From Naegleria gruberi (lineage: Eukaryota), in NCBI GenBank assembly GCA_000004985.1, contig GG738850.1: a stretch of 64,000 nucleotides of DNA; one strand, 5' to 3'. Made by a program: the position numbers and the translations under genes. The notes beneath the pieces are model-generated. The model was given only the letters and a program-made list of their open reading frames with translations. It had not been told where the DNA came from and ran no database searches. Below are positions 3,939-63,944 of this stretch, one piece after another; positions within the stretch are counted from its first letter, which is position 1; every line of letters begins with the position of its first letter.

Positions 3939-4078
3939 ATATTGTCCTTCAAAATTAAACTGTATTATTAAGCCAGAGAAAATCTCTTTGAATGTTCTAA
4001 TCGAAACAAATCCCAAATGTCAGCCAATGTGGAATAGCTTCTAGGTACATTAATTACCTTAACCTTAATCATTCATCA

Positions 4079-4167
4079 GGGTGGTTAGCTCAGCGGTAGA
4101 GCACCGGATTGCAAAGTTAATTGCAGCAGACATCCGATGGTCACGTGTTCGATCCACGTACCACCCT
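4079..4167 (+). tRNA. tRNA-Cys (anticodon GCA) with a 17-nt intron in the anticodon loop
   Basis: GGGTGGTTAGCTCAGCGGTAGAGCACCGGATTGCAAA[gttaattgcagcagaca]TCCGATGGTCACGTGTTCGATCCACGTACCACCC+T folds as a cloverleaf with acceptor GGGTGGT/ACCACCC, D stem GCTC/GAGC, T stem ACGTG/CACGT, T loop TTCGATC and anticodon loop TTGCAAA. Intron is about 4116..4132. The track ORF 4081..4266 is just a translation of this tRNA. Confidence 0.85.
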
Positions 4168-4570
4168 ACCTTTTACCTTCTTTTGAGTTATAAGAAATTG
4201 TTAATTCTTCTTTTGAGTGTTCTTTTAACTTGTATTGAAAAAAAGCTCGTTCAAGATAAAGAGTGAATGATCTTCATTAAATTCTTATTGATAAATTAAC
4301 TGTGAGAATGGTATTATTTGGGTTAGCTTGGTGATTAATCAGAAAGGTGGCATTTCATGAATGTTTACAATATTACAAAGACAGTCTCAGAATTCTAAAA
4401 TAGAACTCAAATTGTTGTTTGTTACAAAAGACACTAATCTCTTGATTGGTTCTTCGGTGAGAAAACAAGGATTTTTGTGTCTCTTGGCAGACACAACCTT
4501 TATAAATATCCAACCTTGTAGCATAGCAATTTTAAAAAACAAAGCGAAACCTTTCCATCAATAACAAAGA

Positions 4571-5314: not shown

Positions 5315-5364
5315 TTTTGGATTAAAAATTAATAATTTCTTATAACTCAAAAGAAGGTAAAAGG

Positions 5365-5453
5365 AAGGGTGGTACGTGGATCGAACACGTGACCATCGGA
5401 TGTCTGCTGCAAATATCTTTGCAATCCGGTGCTCTACCGCTGAGCTAACCACC
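5365..5453 (-). tRNA. tRNA-Cys (GCA), second copy in inverted orientation, with a 17-nt intron
   Basis: The reverse complement gives exons identical to the 4079..4167 copy. The intron (gatatttgcagcagaca) differs at 3 positions. The 31 nt 3' of the tRNA (ccttttaccttcttttgagttataagaaatt) are also identical to the flank of the first copy. Track ORF 5267..5452 is spurious. Confidence 0.85.
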
Positions 5454-5529
5454 CTGTTGTGGTGTTAAGAATTAAGACGATCACTGCAGTACCCTACATA
5501 CTAAGGCTATACAAAACTCCACCATAATA

Positions 5530-30151: not shown

Positions 30152-31621
30152 GATTTGTATTCTTTTTCTTCTTCAATTACTCAACCCGAACTTAGAAAAT
30201 GATCATCAAACAGGTCCTATACTTGATGAAAAGTACTTCTATGAGTTTGCTTGTTTTTTTTCGTTGTATTTCAAGCACATTAGACTTCATCTATTCATAA
30301 CCCATTGGACGATCCTTAATGATGAAGAAAGGATCGGAGAGTTTTTTTATTTCGGCGGGATTTGGGTTATTTAAAAAAGGTAAGGCTGCGCCAAAGCAAA
30401 AGGGTTTTACAAAATTCAATCTATTTGCTTGGTGTGGAATTGATTGTACAAATTTTTTGTCCATGTACGAAAGTCATCTGTGAATTGATTTATTATGTTT
30501 TGGTGTTTTTGTTTGGTATTATTAATGTTGATATGTCAACAAGAAATGAAAGCACACATTACTGGTGCTTGATTGATTATTGTTCACTGACGTTTTCTTT
30601 TCCTTGTTGTGATGGAAATTTATTTGAACACACTTCTCAAATATTTGGCAATTGACTTGGAATTTAACATTGGAAGGTATATAAATTGGAAATATTGTTC
30701 GAAACTTGATATTTGTTGAATTTTGAATATTCCCCTTTGAAGAACATCTTCCAACAATTCTCCATTCTTTACTTTTGGGGACATCCATTGTTATTCTCAT
30801 ATAATCTTCCTAATTCTTCTAATGAAAGATCATTGTAAACCTCAACCACATTTCTTAAGAAAAAGACATGAAACATCATCAGTTTGATGATACATTTTTT
30901 TCCTCCAAGATTTTGCGCATCTGAATTCATCATTCTTATCATATGGATTGGCTAACATTGGAAATTGTTTGATATTGCATGTTTGCTTTCTAATTGTTGA
31001 TTCTTAAATACCATCGATGACATTACATATTCCCAGGTCAAACATAGAGACCCAGAACAGACAGCTTTGGAAGAAATTAGCAAAAGATCCATTTGAAGAT
31101 ACTGCATTTCAAATAACTTCAATATATAAAATAAAGTTTATTTCATTACTTGTAAAGTAGTTGTCTTGTAAATAATCGTGGAACTCACCTCAATTGTTGT
31201 AAGATCATTGAAACTGGTTCGGATTTTTGAATTTAATTATTTGAGAAATAGATGTGTTGCAGATAAATATGTAAAACTGATGGAACTTTGGTACCAGTTT
31301 TCATGCATTCAAAAACAGTTATTAAAACCAAATATCTCTCTAAAAATAACACGATTCAAATTTACAAACTTTAATTTCAAACAACATTACAAAAAAACGC
31401 ATTTAGAATGTTGTTCTTTTTAATACGCCTCTCTTTCTAAATATCCAATTAGAAGAAGGATACCAGATAGTGTTCGTTAGTTAAAGTCGGTGCATAACGA
31501 CTCTAATCACATCACAAACATCAATTCTTTCAAAAAAAATTCTGTCTAACCAATTTACCGTTTAGACAGCTGACAGATAAGAGACCATCGTCTAAACACA
31601 TTTCTCTTCTTCTGTAAAAAT

Positions 31622-33595
31622 ATGGATTTTCTCAATGGAAGCACATCGAGTGTGCCTAACTTGGTACTCATTGCTTGTATAGCAATCATTCCCATTGTTC
31701 TTTTTGTTGGTGCTGTTCTCTTTATTATTTTCTTCTCAAGTCCAGCCGATAGGTTCCAAGGAATATTCCCCAAAATTATATGTGTAAGTTTATATTGGTC
31801 ATTAGCAATTTTATTCTTATCTGTTTCTTCTGTTGCTTCTTTGTATATACAAAATTTGGTGATGATGAAAAAATTGTTTAATTAATATTCGGGTGATGAA
31901 ATTTTCCCTCCAAAATTAAAATTTACGATACAAAATTAACAACAATAACAAAATGACTGTATGATGATGACCACTGTATTGGTGCTTTTATAATATTTGG
32001 TTATTATTAATTCAAATAACATTATGATGGTATTATTGTGTTGAATGTTTTGATGATGAAATGTTTACATGTTAAAACACATTTCGATCATTGATGATAT
32101 TATTTGATGGATAACAACAAAACTATTATGACTTGATGTATCATCCTCTCAATCTTCTAATATTCACATTATTTTGCTATTATTATTATTTACTACAACA
32201 ACAACAACATTTCAAAATGTAATAATATTATAACAACAATTCTACTTACATATCAATTAATAGGTATTTGGAATGACGTTTGCAGGGTGTATACTATTGA
32301 TCATTCCATTCGATGCTTGGAATACTAGATATAAAGGAGGAATAGGAAGTGCTTTGGAAATTATTTGGCAAGTTTTGTTTGGCGTTGTCGGATTGTTGGT
32401 TTGCCTTGTTATTCCATGGGCACTCATCTATTATGAATCCTATGATGAAGATAAAGCTGGTACACCAAAAGGTTTCCTTCGTCAATGCCTCTGTGGTTTG
32501 ATTGGTTCTCTCATCACTTTTGGATTGTGTGCATTGATTATTGGTGTCACTTATATTTGGTTGGGTATTGCCCGAATTGATGTGAAAGAGTATACAGGTT
32601 ACTATGTTGCTGATGATAGAATTTCTGCATATTCTCTATTGCCTGATAAACCCAGTCAGTATGGTACTACTTTTGATGTGAGAATGTCATTCCTGGTTTA
32701 CCTTATTGCCTTGTTAAGTTTGGCTGGTTGGTTTTGCTTACTAATTTGTGGTGGTTGTGGCCTGACAGCTGTTCCTCTAGAATTGATATTGTGGTTCGTT
32801 TATCGTCCAAAGAAGATTTCCAAGTCTGAATTTATTGAACAACAAAAGAAATATGCTGCACGTGCCCACAAATTGATTGAAATTGGTAAGAGATTGGATG
32901 ATTTGAGAAAACAACCTGGTAATCGTGCCAAACCAAAATCTATTCGTAGTTACCGTGCCTTTAAGGATGCTGTCTATCAATTGGATGATGATTTCAAGAA
33001 GGTCAAGACTGCCTTTGAAAGAGGAGGTGGTTGGATTGTTTTGTACATTTTCTCATTGGGTTTAGGTATCGTTTTGGCAATTATTACAGTTTTGTGGATT
33101 GTTCACTTGATTGTTTACACACTTCCAACTGTTCCATTGTGGGGAGGTCTTAATCAATTCTACATTTGGTTCGATACTGCTTTCCCACTTTTCGGTATGC
33201 TTTTGTACAGTATTTTCGCATTCTATTTATTGTTCAGTATTTTGGCCGGAAACATTTTGATTGCTGGTAGAATTCCAATTTGTTCAGTTTATCCAATTAG
33301 ATGGAAGGATACTTTTACTAGTAGTTTCCTTTTCAACACTGGATTATTATTGCTAGGTTCTTTAACAGTTGTACAATTCTGTGCCTCAACTTTTGAAGCT
33401 TACGTCCAAAATTCAGTTATTGACTCAATGATGAATACCTATGTCAAACACATTCTTGGTCTTGGATATGTATTCCAATATTTGGATAAGATCTTCTTTG
33501 GTTTTATTTTCCTTGGTTTCTTCTTGGCTATTTGTAACATTGCTATCAAACAAAGAAAGTCAGAAAAGGAAATTGAAGCCATCCTTAACAGCTAA
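31622..33595 (+). CDS. LMBR1-domain protein, LMBD1-like (probable lysosomal cobalamin-transporter homologue), 2 exons
   Basis: Exon 1 is 31622..31783 (MDFLNGSTSSVPNLVLIACIAIIPIVLFV...). Donor is GTAAGT at 31784 and acceptor ...TTAATAG at about 32262-32263. Exon 2 starts 9 nt before the ORF ATG at 32273 and runs to 33595. It is a nine-TM protein with the LMBD1-like segment ...LIYYESYDEDKAG (compare YFYYEEKDDDD) and a large cytoplasmic loop with a coiled-coil-like stretch (FIEQQKKYAARAHKLIEIGKRLDDLRKQ). Confidence 0.65.
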
Positions 33596-33667
33596 GCTTT
33601 GTAATAAAATAAAAGATTTTCTAAGGTCGCCTATTCATATTCATCCAGAATGATTGCAGTCATAAAA

Positions 33668-33785
33668 GACTACAGCACCACAGGTTCCCAAGTTGTCTCC
33701 AACCTCAGTACTGATGTGGCTCGACGATGCTTAACTTCTCAAATCGGACGGGATGAGGTGCATTCATCGTGATATGGCCGTAGCC
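33668..33785 (-). rRNA. 5S ribosomal RNA gene (118 nt)
   Basis: Minus-strand sequence GGCTACGGCCATATCACGATGAATGCACCTCATCCCGTCCGATTTGAGAAGTTAAGCATCGTCGAGCCACATCAGTACTGAGGTTGGAGACAACTTGGGAACCTGTGGTGCTGTAGTC matches the universal 5S pattern: ACGGCCATA, CCCGTCCGAT, box A GAAGTTAAGC, AGTACT, GGGAGAC-like, GGTGCTGTAG. Helix I pairs the 5' and 3' ends. It is followed by TTTT (Pol III terminator) and lies 73 bp downstream of the LMBD1 stop, on the opposite strand. Confidence 0.85.
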
Positions 33786-34325
33786 ATTCATAACCCTAAA
33801 ACAATGAATGTAAAGAATATTGAAAATCTTAAACTCCATATTTAAGAAATTACAAATCTTCTTCTCGATATTTTGTGGAGGTTTGTACCACTTACAGAAC
33901 CTCCAAATGGTCCAATGGTGGGATAAATTGGATCAAATCTATTTAAAATTAGATCCTTTGTCAACAGAGCTGTTTTTCTATACATTGGCTTGTTTTAGTT
34001 CAATAAATAATGATATTTTATATGGCACAACAGGTCTAAAACAATATGAGCAAAAAGGCATGGGTGGAGTTACGCCACCAACACTTCAGAGAAATGAGCT
34101 GATCGTGATGTTAGAATTACACTACATGCCTCAAATTCAGTACTAGTTTGCAATCTCTCTTACCTTCAGATGGTTGAAAACATTCATTTCATTATGGTAT
34201 TATTCTTTCTTTAAAACCAACTCTGAAATGGAAGTTTCATGCTTCTATTAATAAATTAATGGGTTTGCTTGCCCAACAGACATTATACTAAGGAGAATTA
34301 AGGGCCCATACCCATCTTGATGTAA

Positions 34326-34396
34326 TCGGGTGTGGTATAGTGGTAGCATTCCAGACTGTCACTCTGGCGACCCGGGTTCAATTCCCGGCACTCGAG
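34326..34396 (+). tRNA. tRNA-Asp (anticodon GTC)
   Basis: TCGGGTG TG GTAT AGTGGTA GCAT T CCAGA CTGTCAC TCTGG CGAC CCGGG TTCAATT CCCGG CACTCGA G. Acceptor has one G-U, a 4-nt variable loop as in tRNA-Asp, and discriminator G. One A-C mismatch in the D stem. Followed by TTTTTT (Pol III terminator). Confidence 0.75.
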
Positions 34397-34825
34397 AATA
34401 GTTTTTTGCTTTATCTCCAGGATTTGAGTTTTAATTTTTTCATAGTAGCAGGTATGATATGTAGTCGAGCTAATTACCATTTTTCAAAGTTTCATCTCTT
34501 AAAACCACCGAGAAAATAATCAAAGATTATATACTTTCATTTTTTTTAAAAATATTCCAAGTTCTTTTCAGCTGCCTGCAGTTCCATGCCTTAATTTCAT
34601 TTACATTAAACTTGTTAATTAAATATTATATATTTATTAATATTTAATTAACACAATATATTTACAACGGATTTCAATGAAACTAGCAAACTACCTATTT
34701 CAAAAAACACGTGTTTTTTACAATATTCTTAATCACGCAACACGTGTTTGAAAATCATCTTGCAATATTATAAACCATTTTAAAGAAGTAGTTACAAAAT
34801 TGTTAAATAAATATTACTAAAAAAA

Positions 34826-36478
34826 ATGATGAAACAAGTAATTGGAAGGAAAGCAACATTGTTGGTGTTGATTTTGGCTTTATGCACAATATTTGTTATG
34901 GGAAAGGAATCGAATAATGATCCAATTATTGGACTTTCTATCGGAAATACACACTGGAGAGCTGTCATTATTAGAAATGGTAATGTTGAATGGATTAGAG
35001 ATGGAGAAGGGCAGATTGAACACAAATCTTTTGAGAATATTAACAAAATAATAGGAAAAAATTACAAATCCATTCAATTTAAAGATCCATACTTGTTGGA
35101 ATCGAATAAGATTTTTGAAAGAAATGGAAAGGTTTATTGTAAATTTGATGTAGATGGAGTTGTGAAGGAAATGACACCAGAAGATATTTATTCAAACATT
35201 CTGCTTGATGTAAAGCAAGCAACTTTAGAATATTTAAATGAGAATATTACAAGAATCTACATTTCAGTTCCTGTTTATTTTGGTCCTGATCAAAGAAATG
35301 TTATTCGAAATGCTGCTTCAGAGCAAGGTTTAAAAATTGAAAGATTTCTTCTAGATCCAGTCAACACGGCAACATTCAATACCAAGGAATACGAATCAAA
35401 TAATTCAGCTAACATTCTAGTTGTGGACATGGGAAGAAAATCATTGGATGCAACTGTACTGAGTAGAAATAATAGCGTGTTTGAAGTTTACCAAGCTGAA
35501 TCGAATGGCCAATTGGGATCTGAAAAGTTTCATATGAAATTGAGAGATTTATTTGTTTCGAAATTTAAGAAACAACATGAATCATTAAGAGATGTGAATT
35601 TATTGGAAAATCAACAGGTGAATGACTTGTTAATGAGTCATGCTGAGATAGCAATGATAGCCCTCTCGAATGATTGTAAATATCATATTGTAATACCATC
35701 TCTCTATGAAGGAAAGGATTTCACATACACTCTAACTCGTGATTACTTTGAAAAACATTGTAAAGACCTTCTTGATGAAATTTCCAAGTTGATTTACAGC
35801 ATTATTACAGAGACAGTTTTTTACTTTGAGACTGTTGATTCGGTCATTCTCTCAGGTGACTCAACCAATAACCCGTTAATAAGGAAGTCAATTACTAATC
35901 GTTTTCCATTTTCCAAAGTTGTACATGGGCAAAATCCAGAGGTTGGTGCTGCTATTCAAGCTTACATGAGAAATCATCCTGAATCAAGTGTTCCGACTTT
36001 ATTTCTTGCGCCATTTTCCATTGGAATTGAAAATTCAGATCATCAATTGGTGAAGATTATTCAAAGGGGTGACTTGTTACCAACTGTGAAACGAGTAATC
36101 TTTTCAAATTTGGATGATTTTAGTGAATCTGCTCATTTGAAGATTTTCATTGGTGAATCTGTGGTTAATATTGGACCAAGGAATGTTCATATCGGTGATT
36201 TGATTCTGAAAGGAATTGAATTGACTGAGAGCGGGAATGCACAAATTCAAATTTCCTTTCAAATTGATGGAGAGTATAATCTCACAGTTACAGCTCTCGA
36301 TTTGAAAACCAACGCCAAGAGTGAAACTGTGATTTCTCTTCACAGTTTTGCCAATAATCTTGAACTAATTGATGAATTATTAGAGGATGGAATTCAAGAA
36401 GTCACAGATAATGTTAAAACTGAAAAGCTTATTTCCAGTTTCATCGTGGATCCAATTAAAAATCATGACGAATTTTAA
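34826..36478 (+). CDS. Hsp70-family ATPase, short STCH/HSPA13-like form with signal peptide (nucleotide-binding domain only, no canonical C-terminal substrate-binding domain)
   Basis: Signal peptide MMKQVIGRKATLLVLILALCTIFVMG. Actin-like ATPase motifs IIGLSIGNTHWRAVII (phosphate 1), ISVPVYFGPDQRNVIRNAASEQGLKIERFLLDPVNTA and VILSGDSTNNPLIRKSI (like GGSTRIP). Length is 550 aa. Confidence 0.7.
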   Translation: MMKQVIGRKATLLVLILALCTIFVMGKESNNDPIIGLSIGNTHWRAVIIRNGNVEWIRDGEGQIEHKSFENINKIIGKNYKSIQFKDPYLLESNKIFERNGKVYCKFDVDGVVKEMTPEDIYSNILLDVKQATLEYLNENITRIYISVPVYFGPDQRNVIRNAASEQGLKIERFLLDPVNTATFNTKEYESNNSANILVVDMGRKSLDATVLSRNNSVFEVYQAESNGQLGSEKFHMKLRDLFVSKFKKQHESLRDVNLLENQQVNDLLMSHAEIAMIALSNDCKYHIVIPSLYEGKDFTYTLTRDYFEKHCKDLLDEISKLIYSIITETVFYFETVDSVILSGDSTNNPLIRKSITNRFPFSKVVHGQNPEVGAAIQAYMRNHPESSVPTLFLAPFSIGIENSDHQLVKIIQRGDLLPTVKRVIFSNLDDFSESAHLKIFIGESVVNIGPRNVHIGDLILKGIELTESGNAQIQISFQIDGEYNLTVTALDLKTNAKSETVISLHSFANNLELIDELLEDGIQEVTDNVKTEKLISSFIVDPIKNHDEF

Positions 36479-42671: not shown

Positions 42672-42744
42672 TGCCGACACCAGGGATCGAACCAGGGACC
42701 TTAAGATCTTCAGTCTTACGCTCTCCCAACTGAGCTATGTCGGC
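42672..42744 (-). tRNA. tRNA-Phe (anticodon GAA)
   Basis: Minus strand GCCGACATAGCTCAGTTGGGAGAGCGTAAGACTGAAGATCTTAAGGTCCCTGGTTCGATCCCTGGTGTCGGCA is a canonical cloverleaf, near-identical to eukaryotic tRNA-Phe-GAA. It is followed by T7 on its own strand (Pol III terminator) and sits only about 10 bp from the stop codon of the upstream + strand ORF. Confidence 0.9.
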
Positions 42745-61204: not shown

Positions 61205-62912
61205 ATGATATTAAATAGTATTGTCATTCTCGGAGCCAGTGGAGATTTGGCTAAGAGAAAACTCTTCCCTGCCTTGTTTACAATTTTCAAAGAAGGATTT
61301 CTCGGAAGTGCTTGGAGAGTTATTGGTTATGCCAGATCTAACTTGACAAAACAAGAATTAATTGATACACACTTATTACCATTCCTTAAGAAACACGATA
61401 AGAAAGATTTGGATGCCTTCTTTGAACATGTTTTTTATCAAGCAGGTCAATATGACAAGGAAGAAGATTTCCAAGCTCTTAACAAATTGATGGAACAATG
61501 CGAAATTGAAGGTGAAAAGATTTTGGAAGCTGAACACAAATCTCAATTGGAACACAAGTGTTTGACCGATGATGAAGTGTTTGATGACTGTAAATCTCCA
61601 ACTGCTCCATTCAAACCACGTCGTCACAGATTCTTCTACTTATCTTTACCTCCAAATGTTTTCCTTAGCTCTGCATCAATGCTCGGAAGAACTTGTAAAT
61701 CTCAAACTGGATATAATAGAATTGTTATTGAAAAGCCATTCGGTAGAGATTTGATCACTTTCAAGAAACTTTCAAATGGTTTATCTAAAGTTTTTGGAAA
61801 GGATGAAATTTACAGAATTGACCACTATATCGGAAAGGAAGTTGTTCAAAACTTGCTTGTTCTCAGATTTGCTAACGTAATTTTGGAACCATTGTGGAAT
61901 AGAAACACAATTAAGAGTGTTCAAATCATTTTCAAGGAAGAATTGGGAGTTGAAGGAAGAGGTGGCTATGTAAGTACTTAATCATATTGTGTGGAAATTT
62001 ATTCATTTCAAATACAGTTCGATAGTTATGGTATCATCAGAGATGTTGCTCAAAACCACTTGCTCCAAATTTTGGCTCTCATTGCTATGGAACCACCAGT
62101 TACATTGAGCCCAACTGATATCAGAAATGAAAAGATTAAAGTACTCAAATCAATTGAACCTGTCAAGATGGAAGATATCGTAGTTGGTCAATACAAAGGA
62201 AAGGTAATTAATGGTGAAAAGGTTCTCGGTTACAGAGAAGATCCAAGTGTTGCCGATGATTCTATCACACCAACCTATGCTGCCTGTGTCCTTAAAGTTA
62301 AGAATAGAAGATGGGATGGTGTTCCATTCTTCCTTGAATCAGGTAAAGCTCTTGATGAAAGACTTGCTGAAATCAGAATTACCTTCAATGAAGTTCCAGC
62401 CAACTTGTAAGTTAATCTACTTTTTATTCAGCAATATTAACACAGATATAGATATACACATGCTGTAGTTAGTCCAAATGAATTGGTTATCAGAATTCAA
62501 CCAAATGAAGCTATCTACTTTAACATTGTAAATAAGGTTCCAGGTTTGGGTGAAAAACTCTCTGAATCTCAACTTAACTTTACTTATAAGACATTGTATG
62601 ATGCCAAGAAGATTCCAGATGCTTACGAACGTCTCATCCTCAATATGGTTCAAGGAGATGAATCTAATTTCTTATCAGAGGATGAACTCAAGTATTGTTG
62701 GCAAATCTTTGATCCAATTCTCCATGAATTGCAAGAAAAGCTTGTTCAACCAGAGGTATGTATTTTGTAATGTATTTGATTGTCTCAAATCGAAATTATA
62801 GCCATATCCATTTGCCAGTGCTGGCCCAACAGCAGTTCATTATTTGAGAGCTCGTTATGGTTTAGTAGCAAGCAAAAATGTGAGTGTTCTTACTCGCTAT
62901 TCTAATCTTTAA
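61205..62912 (+). CDS. zwf: Glucose-6-phosphate 1-dehydrogenase (oxidative pentose-phosphate pathway), at least 4 exons
   Basis: Exons 61205..61969, 62018..62406, 62473..62755 and 62802..62912, with introns of 48, 66 and 46 nt (GTAAGT..ACAG, GTAAGT..TTAG, GTATGT..TATAG). Motifs GASGDLAKRK (NADP binding), RIDHYIGKE (active-site RIDHYLGKE), NVILEPLWNR, YGIIRDVAQNHLLQ. The 3' end is uncertain: a further 66-nt intron (62880..62944) would make the stop 62959 instead of 62912. Confidence 0.85.
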
Positions 62913-62978
62913 CACATTTATTTACAATGATTTTTAATTAATAGGATTCTGATTTGTAAAAATTGTAAAATTACACAT

Positions 62979-63944
62979 TTATATGACATTGAGAGCTTTC
63001 AGATTTTTGAATTTGGCTATCTTTGAAATAACCTTCGTTAGAAACATGCATTCCAAATCATCCTTATTATTTCCTTTCATTATTGTAATGATATTTTCAG
63101 TTTCCCTCATTAGAATATCCACTACTTGTGGTTGGTAATTTTCGAATATTATTGTCACCAAGTTATCATAAATTTTCAGAATATAAAATGGTTTTCCATT
63201 ATACAATTCCTTAACAAATGTCAATCTGTCTTTTAAATGTTTGAATACTTGTTCTAGGAGTGCGCTTGTAACATTCTCAAATAATTTCAATCTGTTGGCA
63301 ATGTACATTAGTCTTCCAAATACTAGCTCACTCATTTTCCATTCATAAGCAATCTTATTGTCCTCATAAATTGAAGTGTTGAATACGCTCATCAAACTGG
63401 CAAAGCAATTCTTCCAAATTTCATCACTTCTCTTCTCAATATTCTTCTCCATGAGTGATGCAACAATTTCTATAATTCTCTTACAAAGCTCCTCATCCTC
63501 ATTAAATCTATCTGAAACAAATCCCATCACTTGTTCCAAATGATTAGAAATACAATTCAGTGAGTAAGCATCCGAAAAAGCCTTCGAGTCTGACATTTCT
63601 AAAACTCTTTCCAAAAACTTGACGCTTTTAATAATATGCAATGGTTTTTCAAAGCCTTGATCATCAATTCTCCACATTGTCTTTTGATGTCTTCTCTCTT
63701 CAATAACTAATCTTTCCTCCTCAAACAATTTAAGATTATCGGAATCACAATAGTCCAATCCATGCATTTCTTCCACCATTGCTTCTCTCTTCTCTCCACT
63801 CTCAATTTCATATTCAATATAAATCACTTCTTCCTTCTTATCTTGCTCATGATTTGCATCGAGAATTTGTTGCCCCAAAATAATGAAAGAGTTTAGTTCC
63901 ATTTTTTTATTTAGAGACTGTCTGAGTGAAATTTTGTATTCCAA
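62979..63944 (-). CDS. Hypothetical protein (no recognisable domain)
   Basis: 321-aa ORF, acidic N-terminal region, no motif recognised. Confidence 0.35.
   Translation of the reverse strand: MEYKISLRQSLNKKMELNSFIILGQQILDANHEQDKKEEVIYIEYEIESGEKREAMVEEMHGLDYCDSDNLKLFEEERLVIEERRHQKTMWRIDDQGFEKPLHIIKSVKFLERVLEMSDSKAFSDAYSLNCISNHLEQVMGFVSDRFNEDEELCKRIIEIVASLMEKNIEKRSDEIWKNCFASLMSVFNTSIYEDNKIAYEWKMSELVFGRLMYIANRLKLFENVTSALLEQVFKHLKDRLTFVKELYNGKPFYILKIYDNLVTIIFENYQPQVVDILMRETENIITIMKGNNKDDLECMFLTKVISKIAKFKNLKALNVI

Follow-up and report, generated by a model that had tools for sequence, protein, structure and literature searches.

In the 5S rRNA genes of Xenopus and yeast, the classical type-1 Pol III promoter is used: TFIIIA binds box A, an intermediate element and box C. 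The genes closest to the one considered here are those already described in Naegleria gruberi. A survey of its genome catalogued 279 putative 5S genes, which lie apart from the rDNA units (Feng et al., 2012, PLoS One; PMC3369914, Table S1 and Fig. 2). The same study described a TATA box upstream of one N. gruberi 5S gene, recorded an internal control region in the 5S genes and the presence of TFIIIB and TFIIIC in the organism, and did not find a TFIIIA homologue by BLAST or PSI-BLAST (PMC3369914). N. gruberi has its 18S, 5.8S and 28S genes on an extrachromosomal circle of 14,007 bp, of which there are thousands of copies (PMC5805870). The Naegleria rDNA circle (CERE) carries the genes for the three rRNAs that share a ribosome with 5S (PMC5805870; PMC10586121), and the 5S gene is not listed among the genes of the circle (PMC5805870). 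A comparable arrangement is known from another free-living amoeba, Acanthamoeba castellanii, where about 100 copies of 5S are dispersed over most chromosomes, apart from 18S and 28S (PMC9528979). The likeness has limits, as Acanthamoeba belongs to the Amoebozoa and not to the Heterolobosea, and its large rDNA is chromosomal and subtelomeric (PMC9528979).

Here we analyze one chromosomal 5S locus in a 64-kb stretch of N. gruberi DNA (the window, scanned over its whole length). The DNA is about 34% G+C, and its ORFs are long and intron-poor. Two Rfam scans were made of the window, one at gathering thresholds and the other permissive (E<=1). They identify a full-length 5S rRNA gene at 33667..33785 on the minus strand, matching model RF00001 with 105.4 bits (E 4.4e-22) over positions 1-120 of 120; the gathering score of the model is 38. 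In the covariance-model alignment no non-canonical pair is flagged and the helices are all paired. The minimum-energy fold is a Y shape with a three-way junction (-41.5 kcal/mol, z -2.6 against shuffles), from which helix I, the helix II/III arm and the helix IV/V arm emerge with their standard pairs. The original prediction, a full-length 5S gene of 118 nt on the minus strand to be looked for with the same covariance model, is borne out at a score far above threshold; its boundary at 33668 differs from ours only by one T, the first of the terminator run, which makes the length 119 nt when included and 118 nt when not. The permissive scan found no second 5S copy or fragment across the 64 kb, and neither scan found an 18S or 28S gene there. 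The gene, in our judgement, highly probably belongs to the several hundred 5S rRNA genes on the chromosomes of N. gruberi. The dispersal of this family in the species has been published; the copy in the window is an ordinary member of it, and very probably among the 279 entries of the published list. With the listed genes it has in common the length (117-119 nt), an internal control region, a T-run terminator and the lack of linkage to rDNA (PMC3369914).

The elements expected of a 5S gene are recognizable within and just beyond it. Box A, anticipated in the original prediction, is present as the motif GAAGTTAAGC, within AGTTAAGCATCGTCG at 33722..33736 (minus strand, +50..+64), and matches all six specified positions of the consensus N(G/C)(C/T)(C/T)AANC (the consensus as given in PMC3369914). 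A box C-like element, GAGGTTGGAGACAACTTG, follows at 33689..33706 (minus strand, +80..+97) and agrees at 10 of the 12 specified consensus positions. The consensus of the intermediate element is too loose to be informative. Directly 3′ of the gene, and again as foreseen, is a TTTT run at 33664..33667 (minus strand), which we take as the putative Pol III terminator. Runs of four T's are common in N. gruberi DNA (about 12.6 per kb per strand), hence the terminator call rests on the position of the run. Upstream, no TATAWA-like hexamer, with up to one mismatch allowed, is present at -40..-15; in this the copy departs from the gene with a TATA box described earlier (PMC3369914). In AT-rich DNA such as this, 24% of random 26-nt windows contain a hexamer of the kind, so that finding one near other copies would mean little.

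From these elements we infer how the gene might be expressed. Pol III would read it from the minus strand, starting at 33785, under the direction mainly of the internal control region (box A and the box C-like element), which would recruit TFIIIC and TFIIIB. Transcription would end at the T4 run directly past the gene. The arrangement resembles the classical type-1 promoter in having box A at +50..+64 and a box C-like element at +80..+97, the same positions, and in ending with a T-run terminator. It differs from the classical case in the two mismatches of the box C-like element and in the absence of a recognizable TFIIIA from BLAST and PSI-BLAST searches of the organism (PMC3369914). As no TFIIIA was found, the classical route, in which TFIIIA engages box A, the intermediate element and box C, is only hypothetical here. 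With the promoter inside the 119-nt gene, a 5S copy could work wherever it is inserted. This would explain why the copies are found singly or loosely grouped among Pol II genes, and why their flanks are unrelated.

The last point could be looked at in a second copy. A 21-nt pattern from the 5S core was scanned against JGI metagenome contigs, viral contigs and GTDB genome contigs. The metagenome contigs gave one true 5S match, L007, which scores 106.3 bits and is identical to the window copy at 118 of 119 positions. The sole difference is at position 24, where the window copy has U and L007 has A, within the unpaired loop B. In both, the gene is followed directly by GTCTTTTAT; beyond that, nothing meaningful is shared in 150 nt upstream and 100 nt downstream, and the alignment of the two loci contains no upstream promoter motif conserved in position. 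The repeated unit is accordingly the 5S gene itself, which fits a gene with an internal promoter. Two copies that have in common only the 119-nt gene and its T run would also fit dispersal by copies of the Pol III transcript inserted at new sites. The viral contigs gave zero matches with two different patterns. An exact 21-mer of the 5S core in a Bacteroidales MAG (L008, JAGAIM010000115.1, 660..680) was rejected as a chance match, as Rfam finds no 5S there.

With so many copies in the genome, the one in the window could be a silent, pseudogene-like duplicate, the cell's 5S RNA being supplied by only a subset of the roughly 279. Truncated and divergent entries are indeed included in the published table, 15 of the 279 being shorter than 110 nt (PMC3369914, Table S1). 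The lack of a TATA-like element at -40..-15, when such a box has been reported for an N. gruberi 5S gene, points the same way, as does the fact that the locus is not conserved in a strain 97-99% identical in sequence or in other Naegleria (see below). Against this stands the state of the gene: it is of full length with no broken helix, its box A is perfect and the terminator is in place. Furthermore, the single difference from L007 falls in an unpaired loop, whereas a decaying copy is expected to gather more changes. We therefore consider a silent copy improbable and keep to the reading of an ordinary, intact member of the family.

How the family is arranged is a separate matter. One window is insufficient for a claim of genome-wide dispersal, and the support for it comes from outside evidence, namely the published coordinates rather than a genome scan. 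In our re-analysis of Table S1 of PMC3369914, the copies of at least 110 nt number 264 and are spread over 113 scaffolds. Copies on the same scaffold are never closer than 1104 bp and are separated by a median of 33 kb. Those without a neighbor within 30 kb make up 145 of the 264; the remainder are in loose groups with a spacing of 1-10 kb. The coordinates support the view of N. gruberi 5S genes as scattered, some alone and some loosely grouped, with no head-to-tail array. The original prediction had the genes as dispersed single copies: the dispersal is upheld by the scatter over the 113 scaffolds, but "single" is true of only about half of them. That they form no tandem array, also predicted, agrees with the minimum spacing of 1.1 kb and with the window copy being the sole 5S in 64 kb. 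Their predicted absence from the rDNA unit is in keeping with the location of 18S, 5.8S and 28S on the extrachromosomal circle (PMC5805870) and with a window devoid of large rRNA genes. It should be noted that Table 1 of PMC3369914 scores the N. gruberi 5S genes as "tandem arrangement: Y," a score that the coordinates in Table S1 of the same paper contradict (minimum 1104 bp). Could the published coordinates have arisen from a tandem array that collapsed during assembly? We think it unlikely, as the window copy is flanked by unique coding sequence.

The neighbor on one side is a gene for a membrane protein of the LMBR1/LMBD1 family, convergent with the 5S gene. Its last large exon, at 32273..33595 on the plus strand, matches Pfam PF04791 (E 5.9e-18). 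The encoded protein is 69% identical to an LMBR1-like protein of N. lovaniensis, 60% to that of Willaertia magna and 44% to that of Acrasis kona. An exon farther 5′, near 31616..31795, has conserved counterparts in N. lovaniensis, Willaertia and one metagenome relative. The stop codon ends at 33595 and an AATAAA lies past it at 33603..33608; the 3′ end of 5S (33668) is 73 bp beyond the stop, exactly the distance that had been given from an LMBD1 stop codon. No N. gruberi protein is among the database matches of the LMBR1 gene (31616..33595, plus strand), unlike the neighboring Hsp70-like ORF (34826..36478), which matches an NCBI entry, "predicted protein [Naegleria gruberi]," with 100% identity over 96% of its length. 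That identity marks the window as nuclear DNA of N. gruberi, with which its G+C content, its intron-poor ORFs and the Naegleria, Willaertia and Acrasis relatives of LMBR1 agree. The lack of an N. gruberi match suggests that the annotation of the species may have overlooked the LMBR1 gene.

Upstream of the 5S gene, the spacer that separates it from a tRNA gene contains a 108-aa ORF on the plus strand (33820..34146), which had been suspected to be spurious and which we judge not to be a gene. It has no Pfam match and zero matches at E<=0.001 among 1.84 billion representative proteins. For codon usage it scores 0.086 bits per codon, a value in the range of out-of-frame ORFs (0.116 +/- 0.120); the window's 20 long ORFs, at 0.319 +/- 0.105, are over two standard deviations higher.

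The tRNA gene itself, at 34326..34396 on the plus strand, specifies tRNA-Asp (anticodon GUC) and is divergent from 5S. Rfam (RF00005, 57.1 bits against a threshold of 29, E 1.1e-09) and ARAGORN (anticodon gtc) agree on the call, and the 5′ ends of the two genes, on opposite strands, are 541 bp apart, where 540 bp had been predicted. Reading of the sequence reveals an A-box-like TGGTATAGTGG and a B-box-like GGTTCAATTCC within the tRNA gene and, 5 nt past its 3′ end, a T6 run (34402..34407, plus strand) that is likely its Pol III terminator. With A and B boxes and a terminator of its own, tRNA-Asp(GUC) would function as an independent Pol III unit.

Whether the two genes amount to a small Pol III cluster, as originally proposed, is doubtful beyond the plain adjacency. 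The adjacency is real, but a recurrent or functional unit finds no support. At the tRNA density of the window (four genes in 64 kb), the chance of a tRNA gene within 600 bp of a given point is about 7%. There is no tRNA gene in the 1964 bp of L007, a comparison by which recurrence of the 5S-tRNA linkage is judged on two 5S loci only, and the pair is absent from the LMBR1 loci of relatives. The other tRNA genes of the window, which bring its Pol III genes to five, are one for tRNA-Phe(GAA) at 42672..42744 (minus strand, 67.9 bits) and two for tRNA-Cys (GCA), at 4079..4167 (plus) and 5366..5454 (minus). The tRNA-Cys genes score 54.7 bits each in Rfam and have an intron of about 19 nt; both were missed by ARAGORN. 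They sit in the arms of an inverted repeat (4074..4209 and 5324..5459; 136 nt, 96% complementary, 1114 nt apart).

LMBR1 loci were compared from N. lovaniensis (L001), Willaertia magna (L002) and two metagenome relatives (L003/L004 and L005/L006). None of them has a 5S or a tRNA gene, which makes an argument from covariation or conserved synteny impossible. Synteny with N. lovaniensis, Willaertia and a 72%-identical relative stops right after LMBR1. With N. lovaniensis it picks up again at the G6PD gene, 28 kb away and in inverted orientation: G6PD and its neighbor occupy 61517..63902 in the window and 19273..22021 in L001, the distance from LMBR1 being 28 kb in the former and about 8 kb in the latter. 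In between, N. lovaniensis has genes for a 446-aa protein, an F-box protein and a kinase-like protein, none of which has a counterpart in the window.

The closest comparison is with L003 and L004, both from one ENA metagenome run, which encode an LMBR1 protein identical to that of the window. Their DNA is 96.9% (L003, over 30842..33624) and 99.4% (L004, over 32078..33624) identical to it. Past 33624, the two contigs have a 20-nt insertion, then about 18 nt in common with the window, and from there on, some 20 nt short of the 3′ end of 5S, diverge completely. The environmental strain thus departs from the window 20-40 bp before the 3′ end of 5S. The stretches compared are 33624..33648 in the window, 2836..2999 in L003 and 1545..1555 in L004. 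There is no 5S in the remaining 125 nt of L003, and its 164-nt tail matches nothing anywhere in the window. No near-identical ORF of the strain was found for the Hsp70-like gene. The breakpoint may mean that a Pol III gene was recently gained or lost here, or that the DNA at it was rearranged. Equally, a short metagenome contig may be chimeric, or the intergenic DNA may have turned over in the ordinary way. A tentative idea, to which we give a low probability, is that the N. gruberi lineage acquires, loses or moves its 5S genes within very short spans of time, and that these genes perhaps mark rearrangement breakpoints.

An imperfect 8-mer, TTATGA(A/C)T, brackets the 5S gene plus two T's, as TTATGAAT upstream and TTATGACT downstream. 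The sites (33778..33785 and 33659..33666, minus-strand flanks of 5S) have the layout expected of a target-site duplication flanking an inserted copy of a Pol III transcript. The comparison with L003 does not support such a duplication: the L003 breakpoint is about 20 nt further out, so that the comparison is not one with a simple empty site. The pair is possibly due to chance in AT-rich DNA.

Dispersed copies, the divergence of a near-identical strain about 20-40 bp from the 3′ end of 5S and the flanking 8-mers might together suggest a SINE derived from 5S, or another mobile element, of which the 5S sequence forms the head, but this reading is largely refuted and, we think, barely credible: similarity between the window and L007 ends at the gene plus TTTTAT, with no common body or tail; the candidate duplication and the L003 breakpoint fall at different places; and the entire 5S structure is intact at 105 bits including the 3′ domain, whereas known 5S-derived SINEs keep only the 5′ part of 5S. 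The sequence is better regarded as what the covariance model makes of it, a complete 5S rRNA gene.

In closing, the locus by itself has little significance; it amounts to the correct annotation of a routine pair of Pol III genes, within an organization that was catalogued in 2012. To annotators, it may be useful to know of the conflict between Table S1 and the entry "tandem: yes" in the same survey, and of an LMBR1 gene that is possibly unannotated. The wider interest is in how the ribosome of the organism is provided for. The 5S RNA from this and similar genes would join large ribosomal subunits whose 28S and 5.8S rRNAs would come from a separate source, the multicopy extrachromosomal rDNA circle. 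Naegleria thus presents an unusual split, with three rRNAs from thousands of copies of a circle and 5S from a few hundred genes scattered over the chromosomes. As the sources are on separate replicons, the cell must balance their output.
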